Source: Candidatus Latescibacterota bacterium | GTDB lineage: Bacteria; Latescibacterota; UBA2968; UBA8231 | Direction: 5' to 3' | Assembly (NCBI GenBank): GCA_965208105.1 | Contig: OZ242318.1 | Location: forward strand, 2,016,001-2,080,000 | DNA length: 64,000 bases | In this document: positions 2,070 to 46,190 of the stretch, one piece after another | How positions within the stretch are numbered: the first letter of the stretch is position 1 | How the letters are laid out: each line of letters opens with the position of its first letter | The notes under the pieces: generated by a model | What the model was told of the DNA's origin: nothing | What the model saw: the letters and a program-made list of their open reading frames with translations, nothing else | The model's database searches: none | Program-made: the position numbers and the translations under genes

Positions 2070-3002
2070 TCATGCTGCTCCTCGGAATAGCGGACCATGC
2101 CTCAATTTCCAAACACACTCATCAACCTCAGACTCATTATCGGTCTGCAAGAAACACATTAACCCCGAAAATTCACGAAGGATCCACAGCTGGCGCACGC
2201 GATGTTCAAGTAAACCGTCCATCCCACCACATTCCTGTGTGTAGGCCGCCAAAACCGCCTCGGCGAACTCTTGACCCAGGTGATGCTGGACCGCCAAATC
2301 CTGGGCGGGATCCCCCAAAGTGGCATCCTCGAAGTCTAGAACAGCCGCAACTTCTGAAACATCCTCGTCGACCAGGACGTTGGCGTAAAACAGATCGCCG
2401 TGAACAAGAACGGGCTCGTAGGTCTGCATTCGCTCGTCGGCTACAAACTTTTCCCACCAGCGACGCACCTCATGGTATTCGCCCAGCGATAGGGCAGTCT
2501 CAAGATGCGGCAATACGTTCTGTTGCATCGGGTTGAGGGCTTCCGGCCTGCTGTGAAAGAGCGGGAGATCGAGATCGACAAATTCCTCTACCGGAGTGCT
2601 GTGGAGCTGCCGGAGAAATCTGCCCAGGTCATCGGCGATCCGGTGCCAATCGAGAATTTCCAGGTGGCCCTTGTGCAAGGGCACGCCAGTGAGTTTTGGA
2701 TAGCCCAAAACTCCATACGGAGCCAGCTTGGAAGGCGAGGCGCACCACTTGGGATTGGGGACTGATAGATCGAGGTAGGGCGCTGCTCTCAGAAGCACCT
2801 GGGCTTCCCTATCGTAGCCTGCGGCAACAGACTCATTCTTGCTCAAGCGAAACACAATGCCGGCGGCGGATTCAACTACCAGGCTGGACACGCCGGCATC
2901 CAGCCGCTTCAGTGGAGCAATGCGTCCTAAATCCGGAAAAAGATCGCCCAGGTCCTGTTGAACTCTGGTGAGGTCGTTGAAATGATCCTGGTCGTCCAAC
3001 AA
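2070..3002 (-). CDS. APH-family phosphotransferase, cassette
   Basis: LVHGDLFYANVL and VLDFEDATLGDPAQDL motifs. Confidence 0.85.
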   Translation of the reverse strand: MLDDQDHFNDLTRVQQDLGDLFPDLGRIAPLKRLDAGVSSLVVESAAGIVFRLSKNESVAAGYDREAQVLLRAAPYLDLSVPNPKWCASPSKLAPYGVLGYPKLTGVPLHKGHLEILDWHRIADDLGRFLRQLHSTPVEEFVDLDLPLFHSRPEALNPMQQNVLPHLETALSLGEYHEVRRWWEKFVADERMQTYEPVLVHGDLFYANVLVDEDVSEVAAVLDFEDATLGDPAQDLAVQHHLGQEFAEAVLAAYTQECGGMDGLLEHRVRQLWILREFSGLMCFLQTDNESEVDECVWKLRHGPLFRGAA

Positions 3003-3038
3003 CTCTGTCTCTCTGACGCGTATGCCGTTAGCCGCTTT

Positions 3039-3115
3039 CGCTTAACTTCTCAGTGCCCCCGAACCGGCGCGGCGGTTGGGCGAAGGGCCTGGAGGCTGGG
3101 GCACGGGATTAGGCG
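3039..3115 (-). repeat. attC-like site 4 (degenerate)
   Basis: cgcttaac...gtgcccc/ggggcac...attaggcg. Confidence 0.7.
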
Positions 3116-4710: not shown

Positions 4711-4839
4711 CAGTTAAGGTTTTCCGCTTTGCGAACTAGGCGCGTCCCGAAGGGCTGGTGCGAGCTTTGCGAACCGAGAATCGGTTGCCACAGGCCCAAG
4801 GCGCCAAAGGCGCCGCAGCGCAAAACGTGCTGTTAAGTG
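4711..4839 (-). repeat. attC-like site 6 (long, internal duplication; core TAAC>TAAG)
   Basis: cagttaag...gctttgcgaac twice...gttaagtg. Confidence 0.75.
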
Positions 4840-4889
4840 AGGTAGCATCAACTAACTTAGTCTAAGCTCCTCATAACACGTCACTTAAC
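4832..4889 (-). other. Gene-less mini cassette body (~42 bp between sites)
   Basis: gttaagtga at 4832 matches tcacttaac at 4881-4889; no room for an ORF. Confidence 0.8.
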
Positions 4890-5841: not shown

Positions 5842-5934
5842 CAGGTAAGGTTTCGCCGCTTTGCGAACCAGCGAAGCGGGTTGCCGAAGGCCAAGCCGCG
5901 ATCATCGTCCTTGCGCAAAACGCGCTGTTAGCCG
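5842..5934 (-). repeat. attC-like site 8 (core TAAC>TAAG)
   Basis: caggtaag...tttgcg/cgcaaa...gttagccg. Confidence 0.78.
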
Positions 5935-5968
5935 CCGTAGCTAAGCAATGATCCGGGATCAAGTTGCT

Positions 5969-6355
5969 CTACTCAAATAATCGCCGAACCGCAAGGGCAT
6001 TATGAACGAAAGTCTCTTCGAAAGGCGTGCGCCCATTCAAATTCCTGGACTCCCGTTCAGCTCCCCGATCTAATAGCAACTCCGCCACCTGTCGTTGGTT
6101 GCCGTGTGCAGCAGCATGAAGAGGTGTTGTGCCCCAGTGGGAGTTTTGGTTGTGCGCATTGATGCTTGCTCCTTGATCGAGCAAGTACGCCACTACCTCG
6201 GCATGACCCTTCCACGCGGCGCAGTGGAGTGGCATTGAACCATCCTTGTCTGTTGCGGCTAGAAGGGCTGCATCCCTGTTTATCAACAGCTTGACCGTCT
6301 TGATGTCGCCTCGCTTGGCCGCTTTGATTACCTGTTTCTCTTCCTCGGTTCCCAT
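5969..6355 (-). CDS. Ankyrin repeat protein, cassette
   Basis: Repeated PLHCAAWKGH, TPLHAAAHGN, GRTP motifs. Confidence 0.9.
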   Translation of the reverse strand: MGTEEEKQVIKAAKRGDIKTVKLLINRDAALLAATDKDGSMPLHCAAWKGHAEVVAYLLDQGASINAHNQNSHWGTTPLHAAAHGNQRQVAELLLDRGAERESRNLNGRTPFEETFVHNALAVRRLFE

Positions 6356-6435
6356 TTTTATCCTCTAAAAGGTGGAATGGTGATGAACCCCAGCCCGATC
6401 GTCAAAATTCGCTATAGGAGCTGGGTACCCGGAGG

Positions 6436-6466
6436 TCGGCGCAGCGCAAAACCGTGATGTTGTGGG
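6436..6466 (-). repeat. attC-like half site 9 (one arm deleted; cassette fusion)
   Basis: gcgcagcgcaaaaccgtgatgttgtggg only; no upstream TAAC arm. Confidence 0.65.
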
Positions 6467-6500
6467 AAGTGCGCTTTTCCACCGGCGCATCAAAACATTT

Positions 6501-7388
6501 CTATTTGCGCGGAAGGATCCAGGTCTCGTACGCCAGATGCCAATCCTCCAGATGATTGAGAAGGACTCCACTCTTGATCGATCGATCACAACCTGTAAGC
6601 CTGTGGATTTCTGCCTGTCGTGTCTCGGGATGCTCACGATTCAGTAAGTTGCGTTGAAACCAATCGAGTCGCGTGCGGTCTATTTCGCCTATTTGAGTGG
6701 TCACCCAGCTTTCAAACGCCATGTAGGTCGGTTGGTTCTCCGTGACGAAGGAGATCATCGCATCACGGTCGAGGCCAAGAACGTCCAATACGTGCTGATC
6801 CAATCCCCTGCCACATGCCGGGTAATCAGTGCGGAGCAATCCCCTGGACTTCAGGAGAACTTTGTGCCAGGTACGGGCAAGTTGCAGGACATCGAGGGGA
6901 CCTACGTCGATACTGCTGACCAAAGGAGGAATTCCAGCAGGAATCTGACCTTTGACAAAGTCATTGGCGTGAAATAGATGCCAGTCCTGAAGCGTATTCA
7001 GCAACAAAACAGATGTATAAGTATCTGCTTCGGGATCGAATCCAATATCTTCATAGGTCTCCGTAATTTTGTGTGGCCGAATGTGGCGCCGATATTTGAC
7101 GATTTCATTGAATCTCGCGATCTGAGCTGTGGGCAATTGACCGATTTTTCTAGTGATGATCCACCGTTCGAACGAAACATAGTCGGGTAGTTCTGATCGG
7201 AGATAGTCGTATATCTCGTCGACATCCAAATTCATCGCCTGGAGACAAAAGGTGTCCAGGCCACCACTATTGTCCGGGTAACCGGGATCAAGAAGATCAA
7301 CAGCCCGTGTCACCGCCTTCCACCACGTTCGAGGCAGCTGGCAAACGCCAATGCTGCCCCTGCAGATACTACTGATCAGGGGGACCAT
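6501..7388 (-). CDS. Tandem DUF5069-like domain protein, cassette
   Basis: Two internal repeats (PLISS..G.IGVCQLPRTWWK / PLVSS..VGPLDVLQLARTWHK; DYP..G.GLD; P.Y..FE.W). Confidence 0.65.
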   Translation of the reverse strand: MVPLISSICRGSIGVCQLPRTWWKAVTRAVDLLDPGYPDNSGGLDTFCLQAMNLDVDEIYDYLRSELPDYVSFERWIITRKIGQLPTAQIARFNEIVKYRRHIRPHKITETYEDIGFDPEADTYTSVLLLNTLQDWHLFHANDFVKGQIPAGIPPLVSSIDVGPLDVLQLARTWHKVLLKSRGLLRTDYPACGRGLDQHVLDVLGLDRDAMISFVTENQPTYMAFESWVTTQIGEIDRTRLDWFQRNLLNREHPETRQAEIHRLTGCDRSIKSGVLLNHLEDWHLAYETWILPRK

Positions 7389-7443
7389 AGTAGATTCGTC
7401 CGGTCTGAAGCCTTTTGATAATCAACGGGCCTATCACGCATTT

Positions 7444-7527
7444 CCCATAACTTTCTCGCCGTGCCCCTTCCGCGAAGCGGTTGCGCGAAGGGCGATGTCC
7501 CGAAGCCTGGCACGAAGGTGTTACGCG
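7444..7527 (-). repeat. attC-like site 10
   Basis: cccataac...gttacgcg. Confidence 0.8.
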
Positions 7528-9883: not shown

Positions 9884-9971
9884 CGGCTAACTGCCTGTAT
9901 TCGAACCCACGAAGTGGGTTGCCGAGGGCCAAGGCGCGTAGCGCCGCAGCGCAACACCGTGCTGTCAGCCG
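9884..9971 (-). repeat. attC-like site 13 with attI-like left arm
   Basis: ctaactgcctgtattcgaacc matches 45046-45066 except one base; ends gtcagccg. Confidence 0.8.
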
Positions 9972-35450: not shown

Positions 35451-35553
35451 CAGCTAACGTATTGCCAGTTTGCGAACGCCGAGCTTGTCGAGGCGTTTCC
35501 CGAAGGGACAAGGCGCCAAAAGGCGCCGAAGCGCAACACCGTGCTGTTATGCG
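35451..35553 (-). repeat. attC-like site 40
   Basis: cagctaac...gttatgcg. Confidence 0.85.
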
Positions 35554-35568
35554 AAGATCGCCCTGACC

Positions 35569-36219
35569 CTAGTTCCGAGAACGTTCCAAAGCCAATCTTG
35601 CTCCCAATCCAACAAATATCACCCCTGCAAGACGCTGAATGGCCATCATGGCCCGAGTCGATGGCCGGAGCGCCCTTGACATCCTTGCAGCAAAGGTCGC
35701 CACAACTAGGCACCAAACAGTACCAGTGAATACGAACGTGCTACCCAAGACAAAGAATGCGAATGGTCTATAAGAGCTACTAGCGTCGATAAACTGGGGC
35801 AGAAATGCCAGAAAGAACATTGCAACCTTCGGGTTTAGGAGATTCGTGACTATGCCTCGCCGATATGTTGTCGTGACCCCTCTGAGATGCATTCCTTCGT
35901 TCGAACAAATGTCTGTCGACTGTCGGCGAAGCAGCATATCAACTCCCAAGTATACGAGGTACGCAGCGCCGAGTAGCTTCACTGCTGCGAAGGCAGCTGG
36001 CGACGTGGTTATTATGGCCGAGAGTCCCAGTGTTGCTAGCGCAAGATGAATAACGCCACCCGTGCTGACGCCGAGTGCTGATGCAAGCCCTGATATCCGA
36101 CCCTCCGCGACGCTGCGCGTGACGATGTAGATGGTATCCTGACCTGGTGTGATATTCAGAATAATGCCCGCCGTTACGAACACCCAGAAATTTACAATGC
36201 CGAGTGATTGGATATCCAT
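35569..36219 (-). CDS. LysE/RhtB family translocator, cassette
   Basis: LNITPGQD, GAAYLVYLG, NLLNPKVAMFFLAFLPQF. Confidence 0.92.
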   Translation of the reverse strand: MDIQSLGIVNFWVFVTAGIILNITPGQDTIYIVTRSVAEGRISGLASALGVSTGGVIHLALATLGLSAIITTSPAAFAAVKLLGAAYLVYLGVDMLLRRQSTDICSNEGMHLRGVTTTYRRGIVTNLLNPKVAMFFLAFLPQFIDASSSYRPFAFFVLGSTFVFTGTVWCLVVATFAARMSRALRPSTRAMMAIQRLAGVIFVGLGARLALERSRN

Positions 36220-36269
36220 GTCCACCTCACAAATATGTTCCAAAATTTGACGAATCTACGGAGCGAATT

Positions 36270-36362
36270 CACATAACGTTATGCCGGTTTGCGAACCCAC
36301 GAAGTGAATTGCCAAAGGCTAAGGCGCGAACAGCGCCGAAGCGCAAACCGTGCTGTTACCCG
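36270..36362 (-). repeat. attC-like site 41
   Basis: cacataac...cggtttgcg/cgcaaaccg...gttacccg. Confidence 0.87.
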
Positions 36363-36390
36363 ATGTGTCAAACCACCCGACGCGCCGGCG

Positions 36391-36771
36391 CTACTTCACT
36401 GGCTCTCGAGGAACGGCACGAATTGCATCATCTAGCTGGCGCGACAATGGCGAAAATTCGGCACCAGATTTCGGATCAATCACTGCAATCGTGTAGTCAA
36501 CTGTGGTATCAGCGTAAACCTGAACAACCTTGTAGTCGATGGACGGGTTCGGATCCACAACGCGGATTGAATACTTAGCGCCCAACTCAGGAACATGCAC
36601 ATGGCGCATTTGTTTCAAAGCGTGCTCGACCCTTCGAACCGAAGACGAGTCACCTTGAACGACCAGCGATAATGGCTCTTCAGCGGGCTCGTCGCAGCTA
36701 GTCACCAGGAGTGCCCCTACTGCTGAACAGATAATCCAGAGTCGTGGTCGCATCATGTTCTGATCTCGCAT
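36391..36771 (-). CDS. Hypothetical lipoprotein, cassette
   Basis: Hydrophobic N-terminus ending LLVTSC. Confidence 0.55.
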   Translation of the reverse strand: MRDQNMMRPRLWIICSAVGALLVTSCDEPAEEPLSLVVQGDSSSVRRVEHALKQMRHVHVPELGAKYSIRVVDPNPSIDYKVVQVYADTTVDYTIAVIDPKSGAEFSPLSRQLDDAIRAVPREPVK

Positions 36772-36773
36772 TT

Positions 36774-36866
36774 CCTATAACGGGTTGCCGATGTGCGAAC
36801 TCGCGGAGCGAGTTGGCGAAGCCCCAAGGCCCGAATGGGCCGCAGCGCACAACGCGCTGTTATACG
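36774..36866 (-). repeat. attC-like site 42
   Basis: cctataac...gtgcg/cgcac...gttatacg. Confidence 0.85.
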
Positions 36867-36906
36867 GCGTGAATCTCTGCTTCAGATTGAGCGCTATTTT
36901 CCTTAC

Positions 36907-37215
36907 TCAAATAGAGCAGTGTTGAGCCACGGGCACGACATCCGCCTGGCTCCGATCGTCCGAACCGGCCAGTCGAATCATCGTCGACTCATGGAGGAAG
37001 TCGTCGATGTCAAACCGTCTTGTAGGCCCGGGCAAGCCAAAGGACTGCTGCTCGAGCCCCTTCGCGAGTGAGGACTTGCCAGCGCAGTTCATCCCAGGGA
37101 TGCCAACGAGGTAATGCCGGGCGACTCCCTCAGCTCCTTCCGCGATCCGCTGGGCCACATGGTTCAGCAGGCCCGACTGTCGGACGCGAACGGTCGTGGT
37201 GTCTTGATCCGTCAT
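36907..37215 (-). pseudogene. Truncated uridine-kinase-like P-loop protein fragment
   Basis: VGIPGMNCAGKSSLA Walker A and IDDFL, then ends prematurely. Confidence 0.55.
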
Positions 37216-37269
37216 CTCGCTTCCGATCTCACGACTCGGCATGGGCCGCCATGCCTGATGGTTGCAAAT

Positions 37270-37328
37270 GGATAACGTCGCGGATCAGGCGCGGCTACTC
37301 GCCGTCGCCTGCATCCGGCTGGTTCGGC
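37270..37328 (-). repeat. Classical 59-bp attC (59-base element), unrelated to the array's own site family
   Basis: Minus strand: GCCGAAC cagcc GGATGCAGGCG ... CGCGCCTGATCC gcgac GTTATCC; extra base in L''. Confidence 0.8.
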
Positions 37329-38764
37329 GACCCTTCGTTCACATTTCGGAACCTGAAACTGTAAAGATCGGTATCCTTCATCTCGAATCGCAGACGAATA
37401 GTCTGTCCAGCCAACCGCTTCACATCGCTGCCGCTCTTCCAGGCAACGACGCAATCGATTTCGTCGCCTTTTAGGAGGCGGCATGCAACCAGTCCAAAGC
37501 CGTCGAGCGGCGTGCCTCTTTCGTCCTGGACTTCCACTCGCAGACTGCCGCCTTCCCGTGTAACGAAGTTCAGGACAAGTTGCCCGCCATCGAACGTGAT
37601 GGGCTTGGTCACCAATTCGCCCCCTTGGGTCCCGGCCCGGACTGATGCAAATCCGTCAACCCGGTACGTGAACCGGCGCAGCCTGGACTGTCCGGCGTCC
37701 TCGTACCCTTCGGAAGCATAGACGGAGACCTCCTTGTCTCCGGTCCGCACTATCCCCCACTGCATGTAATTGCCGCGATTGCCCTGGCGATCTTTCGGAG
37801 CGGTACGCGGGATCACCGGTTCCTTGCCCCAGAAATAGAACCGACGCCCGTTGCGACTGGCCATCAAGTAGGGCTCCGTCGATTCATCTTTCATCAGCCG
37901 CGTCGGAAAGCCGATATAGATTTGCGGTGCCCGCTCGTACGGCAGCACGGCGTTCGTGTACAGTTGAAACCCATCGCCGTAGACATCGGTGTTGGCGTAC
38001 GACAAACGTTCTGACCGGTCGTATTGCCATCTCTCGAAATCGTCTGAGGTAACAGTACGAATCATGCGCTGCTGGCCGTCCCACTCACGAAAAAACATGA
38101 CGTATGTCTTACGCAATGCATCCCAGAAAACCAGGTTCTGGGAATCGAAGAAGTGGCGTTGCCCCACGTGGATCTTTCCATCCGGAACAAGAGTCGGGTC
38201 ACCCTTATTGACCGGATGCCAATGAATGGCGTCCGACGACACGTAACCGTAAAGGGCGGCACTCCCCCGCTCCGCGATTGCCTTGTACCGGGCATGGGAC
38301 GGGCAGTCTGGATTGGTGTCTTTGAAGGGCGTGAAAGCGCTCGTGCCCAGCCTGGGATCGGAACCCAGAATCAGGTTGTTGGTTTTCGAGCCGGCGAACT
38401 CCACTAGTCCAAGACTTGGCTTATGCCAATGGATACCATCAGTACTTTGCGCATAACCCACACGGGGATTCTTCCAGTCGTCCCGGCGGCGGCCGGAAGC
38501 GCGATAGTACATCCGGTACGTCTCTGCATCTTTGAATATGGTAGCAGACATCGATGTGCAACCCTCCCACTGCGCGTCATACACCGCCGCCACCTCCCGC
38601 GGCACGGGTCTATGCAAATGCAGACGGACATCGTCCCCAATCCTGTCGATCAGCGCGTCATCTACAAACAACTGCCTGCGGTCCGCGATACTCTTCGGTT
38701 GTGTCATTTCTCCTCCTTGTGCCATGGCGGTCTGGCCGCCCAACAAGGCCAAAGCGACTTTCAA
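37295..38764 (-). CDS. Five-bladed beta-propeller glycoside hydrolase-like protein, cassette (start uncertain)
   Basis: RRQLFVDD, YRMYY, YAQSTDGIHWHKP, FDSQN, R.DGFASV. Confidence 0.7.
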   Translation of the reverse strand: MKVALALLGGQTAMAQGGEMTQPKSIADRRQLFVDDALIDRIGDDVRLHLHRPVPREVAAVYDAQWEGCTSMSATIFKDAETYRMYYRASGRRRDDWKNPRVGYAQSTDGIHWHKPSLGLVEFAGSKTNNLILGSDPRLGTSAFTPFKDTNPDCPSHARYKAIAERGSAALYGYVSSDAIHWHPVNKGDPTLVPDGKIHVGQRHFFDSQNLVFWDALRKTYVMFFREWDGQQRMIRTVTSDDFERWQYDRSERLSYANTDVYGDGFQLYTNAVLPYERAPQIYIGFPTRLMKDESTEPYLMASRNGRRFYFWGKEPVIPRTAPKDRQGNRGNYMQWGIVRTGDKEVSVYASEGYEDAGQSRLRRFTYRVDGFASVRAGTQGGELVTKPITFDGGQLVLNFVTREGGSLRVEVQDERGTPLDGFGLVACRLLKGDEIDCVVAWKSGSDVKRLAGQTIRLRFEMKDTDLYSFRFRNVNEGSPNQPDAGDGE

Positions 38765-38802
38765 AATGCATTATAATAACACCAATTCGTTTTTTCTCAT
38801 GC

Positions 38803-38901
38803 CGTATAACGTTGTGCCGGTTTGCGAACGCCGAGCTTGTTGAGGCGTTGCCGAAGGCCAAGCCGCCGTAGGCGGCGAAGCGGAAACAGGTGTGTTAGAT
38901 G
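38803..38901 (-). repeat. attC-like site 43
   Basis: cgtataac...gttagatg. Confidence 0.85.
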
Positions 38902-38949
38902 AAGTGGGATTCAAACCAATGCCAAATCTGCATAGAAAACATCTTGAGA

Positions 38950-39594
38950 TCAGTCGCCGGTGCCTTGTCCGGTCAGTTGCGTCGTTTGGTTCAACGGCTT
39001 TCTCGCCACGGCCTTGTTGATTGGGTGCGTGTGCCGAATACTACCCGGATGCTCATCCTCAATGGTGTAGCTCTCTTCTAATTCGATGTCCCAATCCTCA
39101 TAGAGTGAGAACAATTTGCCTTCTTGGAACAGTCCGAGGCAGTGCGCTTCCAGATCCGCTGGCGGAGGAATCCTGTCAGTGAAAACGACAACGACGTTCG
39201 TGCCGCCCGGAATTGTATGAGACTTGAATTCCGAGACTAACTTCATCCATTGTTTTCGAGCGATCAGATGCAGACACCCGTGCGAGACAATGAGGTCGAA
39301 CTTGCCAGAGAATGAATACTGACGCATATCAGCGACATCGGCGCGTATGCTGATTCCATCACGGTCCGCCAGCATTTGCAACTTCCGGATGCCTGACTCC
39401 GAAATATCGACTGCCGTAACATCAAACCCCTGCTTCGCAAGGAAGAGTGCATTCCGTCCTTCTCCGCAACCTAAGTCCAAAACTTTTGCTCCCTGCACCA
39501 TCTGATTTGCAAGTTCTAGGATCTCAGCACTCGGATCGCCAAATGTCTTAGCCTCAAGATCCGCGTACCCTTTGGTCCATGGAAAATCAATCAT
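38950..39594 (-). CDS. TehB-like SAM methyltransferase, cassette
   Basis: VLDLGCGEGRNALFLAKQGFDVTAVDIS; start taken as ATG 39594. Confidence 0.87.
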   Translation of the reverse strand: MIDFPWTKGYADLEAKTFGDPSAEILELANQMVQGAKVLDLGCGEGRNALFLAKQGFDVTAVDISESGIRKLQMLADRDGISIRADVADMRQYSFSGKFDLIVSHGCLHLIARKQWMKLVSEFKSHTIPGGTNVVVVFTDRIPPPADLEAHCLGLFQEGKLFSLYEDWDIELEESYTIEDEHPGSIRHTHPINKAVARKPLNQTTQLTGQGTGD

Positions 39595-39702
39595 CGAATT
39601 CACTGGCTGTCGAACTTGCGCTTGAGTGGCGACTATGAAAGTATATCTCCAGAAAAATATTGGGAGATACACTGCAAGGCCCCGACTATACTTTTCCCAT
39701 TT

Positions 39703-39786
39703 CATCTAACGTTCTCGCCGTGCCCGAACCGCGAAGCGGTTGCGCGAAGGGCGAAAGCACGAAGCCGGGCACGGACGTGTTACCTG
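39703..39786 (-). repeat. attC-like site 44
   Basis: catctaac...gttacctg. Confidence 0.9.
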
Positions 39787-39831
39787 CCGTGGCCATCCTG
39801 CACGAATGAAAAATTCCTCGTAGCAGCCGAT

Positions 39832-40629
39832 TCACACCTCTGGCTTAAAGCCTACGGCGCGACACCACGCAAAGGCCGCATAGGCATCGGGAGATACCGA
39901 CCACTCCTCCCAGGCTTCGGTTATTGCTTTCAACTCGTCATCTGTAGCAAGTCCGTGTTCTTGCGCGTTCTGAACAAAGGCTCCGTCCTGGAAGTAGTGC
40001 ACTTGTCTGCTCCCAAACGTCTTCACTTTGTCCTCAGTTCCATAGCAGAGATATTTGGAAGTGGCAGTCACATCATTAAAACTCGCGCCATTCAATAGAC
40101 CGCGAAGTTCGCGGCCGCAATATGGACCGCCGGTGCCTTTCAGAGTCCAGAGCTGCTCTCGAATTGAATAGCTGCGTCGAAGTAAGGACGAACGTGGTCC
40201 GCTGACGATGAAACCACCGTATTCCACGTCTGCGATTCCTAATACCCCACCGGGTTTGAGGACGCGCTTCACCTCCAGGAGTGCGTCTTGTGGGCGATCC
40301 AGGGTCTCGGCCACCGAGTGGCAGAGGCAGGCATCGAAGCTATTGTCTGCGAAATCGAGTTTGTAAACATCACCGACGCAAAAATCAATGTTTCCAATCG
40401 CGTGGACGCGAGCATACGTTTCAGCATCTCCGAAACCATCATCGCTAAGATCAACACCGACTACGCTACGCACCTTCTCGGCCACACCCAAAGCAATGCT
40501 TCCGCCACCGCATCCTACGTCCAGGACTTTGAACTCTGGTGCCAAGTGTGGAAACAGGAACTCGGCATAATCGTCCGCGTTCCGGCCGGCCATGTAGTCT
40601 TCAAAGCTCATGCCAAAGGTGTCTTCCAA
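39832..40629 (-). CDS. UbiE-like SAM methyltransferase, cassette copy 2 (diverged)
   Basis: Paralogue of 27682..28479 with several substitutions. Confidence 0.9.
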   Translation of the reverse strand: MEDTFGMSFEDYMAGRNADDYAEFLFPHLAPEFKVLDVGCGGGSIALGVAEKVRSVVGVDLSDDGFGDAETYARVHAIGNIDFCVGDVYKLDFADNSFDACLCHSVAETLDRPQDALLEVKRVLKPGGVLGIADVEYGGFIVSGPRSSLLRRSYSIREQLWTLKGTGGPYCGRELRGLLNGASFNDVTATSKYLCYGTEDKVKTFGSRQVHYFQDGAFVQNAQEHGLATDDELKAITEAWEEWSVSPDAYAAFAWCRAVGFKPEV

Positions 40630-40644
40630 TGCGGAAAGCCATGG

Positions 40645-40804
40645 CAGGTAACGTTCTTAAGTGGCCGAACTGGCAAAGCCACAACTCATCCTAACCGCTG
40701 TGCCGCTCGGGCAGCCACTACTCCTTCCCAACGTCCGCACGTTAGGGCCAGTTGGGACGGAGGCCGCCGCAGGGCGGCCGCAGCCGGCCACTGTGTGTTA
40801 TGCG
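40645..40804 (-). repeat. attC-like site 45 (160 bp, expanded inner arm)
   Basis: caggtaac...agtggccg/cggccact...gttatgcg; aactggc/gccagtt encloses cctaac...gttagg. Confidence 0.8.
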
Positions 40805-40856
40805 AAGGTGCCCCCCGAGGCTACCCGCACCGCGTTCCACTACCCTCACAATGCTG

Positions 40857-41450
40857 TCATGTCGAGGTCCTCAATAGATGACGAACGGGCTCGTCAGACC
40901 ACAGCTGCACCTCAATGAACCGCTCCACAGGTGTCCCCCAGTAGTTGTCGTATTCAACTCGAGGCATTCCGTACTCCCCGATCACGGCCTCAAGTTCATC
41001 GATGAGGTACACGCGATCGTGATACGGTCTCGCCTCCTGGCGCGGGATTCCGAAATCCGCCCCGAAACCCATGGCCTCGAAACTGTCAGAATAGGTGAAG
41101 CTAGTGACGGGTGACGGGAGGTCGTTCAGAGCGACCACGACTTCCTTGGTGTCGGGAGCGAGCTGCTTGAACCACTCGGATCTACCCAGGACAAAGTAGT
41201 GTGGAGCGCTCCGCTCGGGCCGTCCGCCCCGGGCGACGAAGAGGCCTCGGAGCCGTTCCTCCGTCAGCCGTCGCATTTCAATATACTTGCGGCCGAACGG
41301 CCGCTTGTGATCACGGACTCGTCGGAGTTCCTGAAGCCCCTGCCGCACACCCTCAAGGTCTGTCTCAGCGAGGTCTGACAGGTTCAGAAACGGATGTCTG
41401 TCGGACAGGTGATAGTGCGTTACGAATTCTGGAATCTTCAATCGCGCCAT
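40857..41450 (-). CDS. Hypothetical protein, cassette
   Basis: 197-aa ORF filling the cassette (PFLNLSDL, PHYFVLG, IEVQLWSD). Confidence 0.75.
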   Translation of the reverse strand: MARLKIPEFVTHYHLSDRHPFLNLSDLAETDLEGVRQGLQELRRVRDHKRPFGRKYIEMRRLTEERLRGLFVARGGRPERSAPHYFVLGRSEWFKQLAPDTKEVVVALNDLPSPVTSFTYSDSFEAMGFGADFGIPRQEARPYHDRVYLIDELEAVIGEYGMPRVEYDNYWGTPVERFIEVQLWSDEPVRHLLRTST

Positions 41451-41500
41451 CTCCGACTACCGCTAGGACCCCTCCCTTCCAAATACGTTCCTGGCACTTT

Positions 41501-41592
41501 TGCATAACGTTCTGCCGGTTTGCGAACCCGCGCAGCGGGTTGCCGAAGGCCAAGGCGCGTCTGCGCCGCAGCGAAAACCGATGTGTTATCTG
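41501..41592 (-). repeat. attC-like site 46
   Basis: tgcataac...gttatctg. Confidence 0.87.
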
Positions 41593-42821: not shown

Positions 42822-42911
42822 CCTATAACGTTCCCGCGGGCTGCGAACCCGTGCAGCGGGTTTTCTGCGAAGGCGCGAATGCGCCGAAGCCGTAGCCCGT
42901 CGTGTTAGCCG
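42822..42911 (-). repeat. attC-like site 48
   Basis: cctataac...cgggctgcg/cgtagcccg...gttagccg. Confidence 0.88.
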
Positions 42912-42962
42912 TGTGTGCAGCCCGCACTGGCCTTGCCAGGACGGCAAGGCCTCTTGATTTGC

Positions 42963-43514
42963 TTAGGCATCCGTGGGACCAGGCGACCAGCCGATCGATT
43001 GGGCCCAACCGTCCGCACGGGACATGATTTCCCAGATTATTGGATTTTTTGAATCGGTGTACCTCTTCCTGTCCTCTCGGTACTTCATAGCCAACTCCCG
43101 TTTAACCTTCTCGTAACGTTTCTGCTCTTCCAAGTGTTCTCGGAGATAGTCACGAAACAACAAGGCGAACTGCTCAGACCAGCTGCCAGCCTTGCGGACG
43201 TGGATATGTGTTCGTCTCTTCCCTGGCAGTTCTCGAAAATACCGCTTTGTCCTTTCAGGGTTGTCCTTCCGCCAGATGTAGCCAATTTGCTCCAGCGGAA
43301 CTCGAAACGGATCAACGGGGTCGAGTTCCTTCACTGAAATCTGCACATCAATGATGGGCTTGGCTGCCAGACCTGCGATTGAGGTAGATCCAATATGGTC
43401 AATCCGGATCGCCACGTTCCCAAGAGCTTCCTTCATCCTGATCCCGAGCTCGCGGAAGAGCATTGGCCACTCATCCGAGTAGTCCTTGATCTCAATCACG
43501 TAAGGTGTCGTCAT
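42963..43514 (-). CDS. GrpB (UPF0157) family protein, cassette
   Basis: IDHIGSTSIAGLAAKPIIDVQ, RTHIHVR, LFRDYLR. Confidence 0.9.
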   Translation of the reverse strand: MTTPYVIEIKDYSDEWPMLFRELGIRMKEALGNVAIRIDHIGSTSIAGLAAKPIIDVQISVKELDPVDPFRVPLEQIGYIWRKDNPERTKRYFRELPGKRRTHIHVRKAGSWSEQFALLFRDYLREHLEEQKRYEKVKRELAMKYREDRKRYTDSKNPIIWEIMSRADGWAQSIGWSPGPTDA

Positions 43515-43583
43515 TGATCGACTGCTCAGTTCATGGATTTGGCGGCGCAGGAGGCGCCGCCGCATTCTTTGCGGGCTGCATTA

Positions 43584-43688
43584 CGGCTAACGTTCTCGCG
43601 GGCTGCGAACCTGCCGCAGGCAGGTTTCCTGCGAAGGCCGAATGGCCGGAGCCGCAGCCCGCCGCAGCGTAAACCGCTGTGTTATCGG
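43584..43688 (-). repeat. attC-like site 49
   Basis: cggctaac...gttatcgg. Confidence 0.83.
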
Positions 43689-45038: not shown

Positions 45039-45080
45039 GTTTCATCTAACTGCCTGTATGCGAACCATTGGTTCGTATAA
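45039..45080 (-). other. attI-like primary recombination site
   Basis: tttcatctaac complements the far end of the first cassette (gttagatgaa 44594) and has no partner attC arm; arm-6 bp-arm GTTTCATCTAA-CTGCCT-GTATGCGAACC plus an extra arm GGTTCGTATAA. Confidence 0.75.
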
Positions 45081-45251: not shown

Positions 45252-46190
45252 ATGCACGCAATGCGGAAATATCGCGGACACCCGGGCCTGACCGATGAAG
45301 AGGTAGCTGTCCTCAGCCGGGTCGAGTTGGAGCTGAAGCTGAGGGGATACGCCAGGAAGACGCGGAAGTCGTACATGGGCCACTGCCGGCGATTCCTTCA
45401 ATGGAAACGGGGCTACCGCGGCTAAGGGCAGGAGGAAGTGCGGTCGCATCTGGGTTGGCTCCTCGCCCGGGGGGTGAGCCGCTCCGCCTTCAACACCACC
45501 TACAGTGCCTTGAGCTTTCTCTATAGGGAAGTTCTGATGCAGCCCGCCTCCCTGGAGAGGCTGCGAAGACCGAGGGGCGGACGGCAGCTTCCCGAAATCC
45601 TCAGCCAGCGGGAAGTGCTGCGTATCCTCGATTCTCTCCGCAATCCGAAGCACCGGCTCATCCTTGCCCTGCTGTATGCCGGGGGCCTGCGTGTGGGAGA
45701 GGTCGTGCGTCTCAAGGTGAGCGATATCGACAGCGATCGCATGCTGATCCGCGTTCGCCAAGGCAAGGGACGAAAAGACCGATATACCTTGCTGCCCCGG
45801 TCGATTCTCGAGGATCTCCGGTCTTACTGGAAGGCGTACCGGCCGTCGACATGGCTGTACCCCGGAGCCCGGGAAGGACGGCATCTCACCGAACGGTCGG
45901 TGCAGAAGATGTTCTCCCGTGCGGTCGTCGCCGCGGGAATCCGCAAACGGGTGACCGTGCACACCCTGAGACACAGCTTTGCGACGCACCTGCTCGAAGG
46001 GGGAACCGATCTGCGCTACATCCAGGAGCTCCTCGGGCACAGAAACTCGAAAACGACGGAAATCTACACCCACGTGCAGCGCAAGGACCTGGTGCGCATC
46101 GAGAGTCCGCTCGACGCGCTGTTGGGTCACGGCGGTAGCCCTGAGCAGGTTAGAGGACGCACCTTTCCGCGCCACGGCGATGAGAGGTGA
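45252..46190 (+). pseudogene. Tyrosine recombinase (integron-integrase-like, lacking the IntI I2 insertion) with in-frame TAA at 45423-45425
   Basis: N-terminal ELKLRGYARKTRKSY (SAM-like domain) in frame with LLYAGGLRVGE, GKGRKDR, HTLRHSFATHLLE, IQELLGH, TTEIYTHV, SPLD. Confidence 0.85.

Follow-up and report, generated by a model that had tools for sequence, protein, structure and literature searches.

As a rule, an integron cassette is delimited by the very sites at which it is moved. The locus studied here lies in a 64,000-nucleotide (nt) stretch of a Candidatus Latescibacterota bacterium genome (contig OZ242318.1, positions 2,016,001 to 2,080,000; hereafter the window), and raises the question of how a recombination site of the classical attC type came to sit within a cassette whose own boundaries are of a different type. 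The 59-bp site separates a glycoside-hydrolase (GH)-like gene from a truncated P-loop kinase gene within a composite block of 2,033 bp, the crossovers of which (36781 and 38810, window positions throughout) are those of the local array. The best answer, with a probability of about 0.78, is that a fragment of a conventional integron array replaced the body of a local cassette, and that the whole 2,033 bp is one cassette in which the classical attC is a passenger. The block and its boundaries comprise the following features, L030 and L036 being two records from elsewhere that are described below.

36778-36872, minus strand: local-type site closing the composite cassette (nhmmer match 36775-36868, E 4.8e-14)
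36907-37242, minus strand: truncated P-loop kinase open reading frame (ORF), 111 aa, N-terminal ~40% of the protein, with a Walker A motif
37270-37328, minus strand: classical short attC, 59 bp (R'' GCCGAAC at 37328-37322, R' GTTATCC at 37276-37270)
37273-38775, minus strand: segment common to L030 and L036 (blastn), a conventional GH cassette minus its first 34 nt
37295-38764, minus strand: GH-like ORF (beta-propeller family), 489 aa from a TTG (PF00251, E 0.0014)
38776-38810, minus strand: local-type cassette head, with the crossover G at 38810 and a 14-nt end complementing 36859-36872; unlike L030 and L036
38803-38904, minus strand: upstream local-type site (nhmmer E 2.1e-12), whose crossover TAAC at 38807-38810 (plus strand) opens the composite cassette

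A classical attC unlike the sites around it

An earlier sequence-only reading had described the 59-bp element as a textbook attC that differs from all other sites of the array and that should score highest under an attC model, and all three statements held, the third with a surrogate model. The element displayed two 5-nt spacers (or 4 and 4 nt with one more C-G pair), a 5-nt loop and a stem whose paired stretches of 4, 6 and 4 bp are interrupted by two single extra bases, each of them on the 5' arm (R''-L''). Its hairpin was estimated at -18.7 kcal/mol with DNA parameters and had the same orientation as the array sites, and the stop codon (TAG) of the GH ORF fell in its loop. The R'' box ends in AAC and the R' box starts with GTT; compared with RYYYAAC/GTTRRRY, GCCGAAC was off at one position and GTTATCC at two. 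In the accessible text of PMC2727003, the extrahelical bases of attC sites are two or three, lie on the R''-L'' arm and include a conserved G and T 6-8 nt apart on the bottom strand. The extra bases of the window element were 7 nt apart, the second being a T on the bottom strand and the first a C instead of the conserved G.

Classical sites (the 59-base element, as found behind aadA1, cmlA1 and gcuF in L025) resemble the window element in their AAC/GTT box ends, 5-nt spacers, extra bases on the R''-L'' arm, L'' GAC motif (12 of the 12 sites in alignment A3), short terminal loop, position over a stop codon and length of 59 bp. They differ from it at the fourth box positions, which are off consensus in the window, and in the first extra base. 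The window site also differs in its R' half, which comes from the fragment of the kinase cassette (the last six bases of GTTATCC belong to that following cassette), and in lying inside a cassette rather than between two.

Both strands of the 4.85-Mb genome were scanned with a structural descriptor (AAC, a spacer of 4-6 nt, a hairpin, a spacer of 4-6 nt and GTT, with 35-70 nt from AAC to GTT), the hairpin having at least 12 bp, at most two one-sided bulges and a loop of up to 12 nt. Six places were retrieved, of which five were perfect hairpins and 37270-37328 was the sole bulged one. A surrogate covariance model (R1), with the R box and the outer L stem paired, was built on alignment A3 from 12 attC sites of class 1 integrons on plasmids (behind aadA1, aadA2, qacL, gcuF, cmlA1, blaOXA-2, aacA4, dfrA27, dfrA14, dfrA12, blaOXA-1 and arr-3). 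Run on the window with filters off, it gave 23 matches at E<=10, headed by 37268-37330 on the minus strand (21.2 bits, rough E 0.0023); local sites on the same strand reached at most 17.0 bits. A weak R1 match was also seen at 2992-3035 on the plus strand (14.2 bits, E 0.2), that is, on the opposite strand and adjoining a half site at 3041-3090.

In a control of 178 kb from other loci, all R1 matches fell in class 1 integron loci, at an attC or on its opposite strand, and the non-integron loci of the same control gave none. Training sites scored 42-77 bits, by construction, while the attC of dfrA17, which is unlike those trained on, scored 21.5 bits. The R1 search of the whole genome returned no match and was uninformative, as only 150 of 3112 first-look candidates were scored; the genome-wide null therefore rests on the descriptor scan and the 178-kb control. 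By structure and by the surrogate covariance model, 37270-37328 is a genuine classical attC. The profile of the array sites (nhmmer --max, E<=10) did not match it, and it showed equal spacers and a single hairpin in place of the uneven spacers (17 of 24 sites) and branched top of the local type.

The local array and the matching ends of its cassettes

From about 200 to 44,600, the window consists of a single long array of short ORFs, almost all on the minus strand and divided by repeated sites that, on the plus strand, carry TAAC followed by GTT at their low end and GTTA at their high end. With a tyrosine recombinase gene at the high end on the other strand and an attI-like TAAC at 45047-45050, the arrangement is an integron layout. 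The array sites measured 57-97 bp from TAAC to GTTA, were much alike, folded into branched structures and carried one extra base on the R''-L'' arm. Their two spacers differed by 3 nt, typically 7 versus 4, in 17 of the 24 scorable sites, and because of this unevenness an ungapped search for complementary arms found none of them. RNAalifold on a MAFFT alignment of 22 array sites yielded 6 pairs only, so a sequence profile (nhmmer) built from those 22 sites was used rather than a covariance model. This profile gave 62 matches in the window at E<=10, 47 of them minus-strand sites with E<0.05. No Rfam family matched the window at the gathering thresholds. At least one divergent local-type site, 40649-40800 (~150 bp), was overlooked by the profile and spotted by eye, and with this site added the interval 39779-41508 split into two cassettes, each with ends that match (10 and 9 of 11). 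Internal duplications at 95.7-99.5% identity were also present within the array (22137-23178/30006-31048, 27542-28529/39695-40679 and 21308-22139/34053-34884).

The cassettes of this array can be recognised by their ends. The 11 nt beyond the GTTA at the high end of the lower site were compared with the reverse complement of the 11 nt before the TAAC of the upper site. At least 7 of 11 positions agreed in 26 of 34 neighbouring site pairs (mean 7.7, or 8.8 counting G.T), while the two flanks of one and the same site agreed at 4.5 positions on average (n=33). Agreement at 9 or more of 11 was found in 35 of the 1548 possible pairings. Three further cassettes fitted the rule (10, 9 and 9 of 11) once the overlooked site and the attI-like site were added, and the end of the first cassette matched the attI-like flank at 9 of 11 positions. 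Among the mismatches in the 26 good pairs, 27 were G.T on the plus strand and 4 were G.T on the minus strand, which marks the plus strand (bottom strand with respect to the genes) as the likely folding strand, and suggests that an excised circle would form a long end-to-end stem with the plus strand folded. An ATG near the crossover is the usual position of an ORF start in the array, and the complementary cassette head often includes it. Ends that do not match (2-5 of 11) were found in the cassettes 36355-36781, 35546-36277, 5927-7451 and 42904-43591, which may hold further overlooked sites or be other rearranged cassettes.

By this rule the ends of the composite block belong together across the attC, as had been proposed. 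On the plus strand, the closing site has its TAAC (crossover side, R') at 36778-36781 and its GTTA (R'' side) at 36859-36862, the 14-nt R'' end being 36859-36872. This end, GTTATACGGCGTGA at 36859 (plus strand), matched GTTATACGGCATGA at 38810 (minus strand) in 13 of 14 positions counting GTT, or 9 of 11 by Watson-Crick pairs alone and 10 of 11 with G.T. The flank beyond the GTT of the attC did not match the head at 38810.

The block in other data sets

Sequencing runs were searched for sampled words of the stretch 36700-39000, of which the block makes up 88%. Twenty rows, spread over 9 studies, contained at least 78% of these words. One study, the first, had all of them in each of its four rows and may be the source of the window; no RNA run was among the runs listed with the stretch. 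Logan contigs of four runs, from four other studies, were placed on 36200-39900, and each run gave one contig matching the block.

Run X12: 36769-38810, 8 differences
Run X5: 36778-38835, 8 differences
Run X8: 36778-38810, 5 differences
Run X9: 36770-38810, 9 differences

Three of the four contigs extended past the matching part, and the upstream cassette (38928-39671) had depth 0 in X8, X9 and X12. The letters of the loose end were known for X8 only: behind 38810 its 30 letters were unlike the upstream site of the window and, by eye, 24 of 30 were like the attI-like stretch from 45051 onward. A motif similar to this loose end also opens the site at 9892. Among the differences listed for the four runs, none fell in the attC at 37270-37328. 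The 2,033-bp block is thus bounded by local crossovers in five data sets, with a different upstream neighbour in at least one and with the attC internal in each; it was inherited and moved as a whole, as one cassette of the local array.

These data bear on the most resistant of the alternatives, namely that the GH and kinase parts are two ordinary neighbouring cassettes, that the 59-bp site is their working boundary and that the match of the outer ends is a coincidence between recurring families of ends. The attC is indeed intact and oriented like the array sites, families of ends do recur (20 of ~1514 non-neighbour pairings reach at least 9 of 11), and heterologous attC sites are known in chromosomal arrays, as reported in the available portion of PMC8352920. 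The two halves, however, were found together, with 5-9 differences, in four other studies while their surroundings changed, and none of the 24 runs listed had a word share fitting the GH part alone. The ends disagree with a working boundary as well: the GH part begins with TTATAC where the R'' box needs TTCGGC, and the likeness of the kinase part (GTTATCC) to GTTATACGGC, at the R'' end of its own site, stops after 5 letters. The kinase is moreover truncated and without a site of its own type. This explanation is accordingly regarded as unlikely.

The same GH cassette in a conventional form

Two records carried the GH gene together with a classical attC outside the local array. L030 is a contig of a metagenome-assembled genome, found in a scan of one genome per species, and encoded a GH protein 93% identical to that of the window; L036 is a metagenome contig, found in a scan of metagenomes, with 91% identity. 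Over window positions 38775-37273, DNA identity was 96.5% for L030 and 95.4% for L036 (blastn), and nothing else of the genome matched them. The likeness ended inside the GTTA of R' (37273), the window continuing with TCC and the records with GGC. The break falls at the classical point of crossover between G and TT. Towards the 5' end, likeness started at TATAATGC, the 34 nt upstream being different. In the window these begin, behind the crossover G, with TTATACGGCATGA, and by eye 13 of the 34 nt are alike in the L030/L036 head.

In L030 and L036 the crossover G is followed by TTCGGC, a head that complements the window R'' (GCCGAAC) at 7 of 7 positions and their own R'' (GCTGAAC) at 6 of 7; the cassette is therefore complete there in the conventional sense. 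The window head, TTATAC, is not complementary to the R'' of the attC. R1 scored the attC of the two records at 18.8 bits, and no local-type site was found in either. The sequence-only reading had proposed that a piece of a conventional array was repackaged as a single cassette, and this is borne out by the contigs of the four studies, by the head complementing R'' in L030 and L036 and by the end of the likeness at the crossover. Its proposal of gene flow was likewise upheld: with the GH gene and its attC present elsewhere as a conventional cassette, the comparison shows gene flow from conventional cassettes into the local system. The search for the GH gene in classical integrons that it had suggested had a mixed outcome: the GH-attC cassette was found but no integron could be recognised around it.

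Two features of the L030 contig were noted besides: three repeated 3' ends of a tyrosine recombinase gene placed around the GH cassette (1188-1313, 2633-2758 and 4743-4868), and a 48-nt inverted repeat (2827-2874/4523-4570) together with a 411-bp insertion or deletion relative to L036, flanked by CCAAT.

Should the direction be reversed, the GH cassette would be native to the local array and the form in L030 and L036 derived from it. Both 5' heads do measure 34 nt from the crossover to TATAATGC, and the composite occurs in 9 studies as against two records of the conventional form. The L030/L036 head, however, is the perfect complement of the window R'', while the window head pairs with the local site at the far end; the truncation of the kinase behind the attC is more readily explained by the cutting of a fragment; and the two records have no local-type site. 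Such a reversal is thus improbable, slightly more so than a pair of ordinary neighbours. A third possibility, that a GC-rich hairpin arisen by chance or the transcription terminator of the GH gene has been mistaken for an attC, is hardly credible: the element is stable and sits at a gene end, and the other five descriptor places are plain perfect hairpins, but no T run follows it, its bulges lie on the canonical arm, it is the top match of the attC model, and the likeness to another genome breaks at its crossover, the cassette head of that genome complementing its R''.

Genes and remnants within the block

The genes named on either side of the attC by the sequence-only reading were recognised in the profile and protein comparisons. 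For the GH-like ORF, the likelier start is an ATG at 38707, behind AAGGAGG. GH32N- and GH130-type (NCBIfam) matches were weak and under the curated cut-offs, and the protein fell into unnamed or GH32N-like clusters of the protein atlas, so that the label 'glycoside-hydrolase-like' seems fair but soft. No match was obtained among solved structures. The genome that holds the window (G000) encodes dozens of paralogues (tblastn, 20-42% identity), with many sulfatase genes nearby, and none is close to the cassette copy (best 36%); the matches of the paralogues stop at query residues 469-486, mostly 469-474. Among 41 related genomes, 28 had a match at E<=1e-60 and none had a close copy (best 49%).

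The kinase ORF starts 33 nt behind the attC crossover, as expected of the following cassette. Its residues 18-94 matched residues 11-86 of relatives 223 and 217 aa long, and with a partial match of a 111-aa ORF to proteins of that length the kinase is truncated. The likeness stops near residue 94 (~36961), and the last ~17 residues matched nothing. On NF006743, residues 25-97 aligned with profile positions 11-80 of 217, and the match to Pfam AAA_27 (20.9 bits) was under the cut-off. No relative was found in the 168 genomes of the phylum other than its own, nor among longer proteins in a word-index search, and 2 distant ones were found among 1.84 billion representatives. With relatives so sparse, the donor of the kinase cassette was not found in these searches. 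Between the kinase ORF and the local site at 36778-36872 lie ~95 nt of unassigned origin.

The 34-nt head, read as the stump of an older local cassette, contains an ATG at 38800-38798 and a 9-codon ORF remnant ending at the TAA of TATAAT. Neither this head nor the 3' tail of the block has another copy in the genome. In the window (38771-38800) and in L030 (2955-2997) alike, an ATG further upstream reads in frame into the TAA of this TATAAT, which is conserved and immediately precedes the GH ORF, so that the TAA is not a recent nonsense mutation; the TATAAT is a possible -10 box. Taken from its upstream end, the block is a chimera made of a local head, the body of a conventional GH cassette, a classical attC, a kinase stump and a local site.

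How the composite cassette may have formed

The GH gene and its 59-bp attC would originally have been a conventional integron cassette, of the kind that exists complete elsewhere. A fragment comprising this cassette minus its first 34 nt, the intact attC and the first ~40% of the kinase of the next cassette would have been cut from a conventional array and would have replaced the body of a pre-existing local cassette, presumably by illegitimate recombination. The two joins lie in the 5' leader of the GH gene and inside the kinase gene, and thus were probably not made by an integrase. Of the old cassette, the head (crossover, 14-nt end, ATG and 9 codons) and the local-type site would have remained, for which reason the local system would treat the 2,033 bp as one cassette. 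The block would then be cut and pasted at the local crossovers 36781 and 38810, with the attC riding inside; excision would proceed by recombination of the plus strands of the two local sites, and the circle would fold through a 14-bp end-to-end stem.

Two integrase-mediated routes for the GH cassette, into the upstream local site or into a secondary GTT site, were considered and rejected: each would leave the conventional head (TTCGGC) at the left join and an attC at the right join, neither of which is seen.

The local recombinase

45252-46190, plus strand: local tyrosine recombinase gene, 312 codons (PF00589, E 4.9e-41), adjoining the array

The integron integrase profile TIGR02249 matched the local recombinase in two stretches with 210.8 bits (cut-off 265), leaving profile positions 180-234 unmatched, and found no match above cut-off across the genome. 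Aligned to IntI1, the recombinase showed a gap of 43 residues at the place of the IntI-specific insertion (I2), the domain that, in the accessible part of PMC7790495, reads attC in integron integrases. The local enzyme, of the same length as a Xer protein and lacking the I2 domain, is thus not a standard integron integrase. Its orthologues in related genomes were intact and equally short; that of a genome of the same genus (G001) had 92% identity and an open frame of 327 aa. Matches at E<=1e-40 were found in 30 of the 168 genomes of the phylum, and a local-type site occurred within 1.5 kb of the recombinase in 6 of 11 orthologue loci. A cassette array served by an enzyme without I2 would be unusual in itself.

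It is plausible that the local recombinase does not act on classical attC, as the sequence-only reading had supposed. The attC would be inert for this enzyme because it has neither the uneven spacers, nor the branched top, nor the long end-to-end stem of the local sites, and because the enzyme has no I2; the internal position of the attC in five data sets fits this view. A canonical integrase acting in trans, by inference, should still see the 59-bp site.

Evidence weighing against the proposed origin

Several observations count against the body-replacement reading and are brought together here. Concerning the element itself, a C takes the place of the conserved G as the first extra base of the bottom strand, and this base is paired in L030 and L036 by an additional C in L'. 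The R'' and R' boxes of the element, as they stand in the window, pair through AAC/GTT and one further pair only. R1 is a surrogate for the attC model of IntegronFinder, built from 12 sites of which several are close kin, so that its E-values are rough.

Concerning the conventional form, L030 and L036 represent one locus in close kin (97.4% identity) and hence one independent context, and no integron was recognised around the GH cassette in either. R1 found no other attC in L030 (next best 8.6 bits), the L030 genome had no integron integrase above the cut-off (best 90.5 bits among 10 matches), and next to the L030 cassette lies part of a generic tyrosine recombinase gene. No donor array was identified in the records searched.

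Concerning mobility, Logan contigs break at repeats, and some of the contig ends located at sites may be assembly breaks. One joint in X5, which links 36394 to 37298 across 18 intervening letters, reaches the attC loop and resisted interpretation. Finally, the local recombinase gene of G000 is broken by an in-frame TAA at 45423-45425, and the genome is therefore silent on the abilities of the enzyme.

Relation to known cassette systems

Fused cassettes of class 1 integrons, as described in the available text of PMC4670013, resemble the block in that two ORFs of different cassettes travel as one unit. They are defined there by loss of the first attC, whereas here the attC is intact, it is the second gene that is truncated, and sites of a different type delimit the unit. 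On that definition the block is not a fused cassette.

The VCR-type attC sites of Vibrio, in the portion of PMC2727003 that treats them, resemble the local sites in being long, branched at the top, alike within an array and provided with one extra base on the R''-L'' arm. A division of the two systems into branched and unbranched, as first drawn from the window alone, therefore had to be given up, the VCR sites being branched too. Unlike VCR sites, the local sites have uneven spacers, typically of 7 versus 4 nt, a stem between head and R'' that runs at least 11 nt beyond GTTA, and an enzyme without I2. The systems are set apart by uneven spacers, long end stems and the I2-less enzyme, not by branching.

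Taxon-specific attC families offer a third comparison: in the consulted text of PMC8352920, as here, an attC of a different family marks a cassette from the integron of another host. There the foreign site is a boundary, whereas in the window it is a passenger within a cassette of native type. The literature searched gave no account of an attC preserved intact within a cassette whose boundaries belong to a different site type.

Significance

An intact classical site inside a cassette that is moved by another type of site offers a natural test of canonical versus variant substrate specificity. The block also exemplifies a route by which a foreign gene becomes a cassette of a new system: it takes over the head and tail of an old cassette and need not gain its own site. 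The origin of cassettes is an open question in the field. Its presence in the data of 9 studies makes the event a successful one, traceable in nature, and the surrounding array with its I2-less recombinase is worth a study of its own.

Tentatively, and at rather less than even odds, the array may belong to a separate branch of integron-like platforms, with a recombinase of Xer length that lacks I2, is blind to classical attC and uses its own folded sites, distinguished by long end-to-end stems, uneven spacers and G.T pairs on the bottom strand. If this were true, the composite cassette would record the orthogonality of two systems, as well as the birth of a cassette by the exchange of its body for foreign DNA while its head and site were kept.

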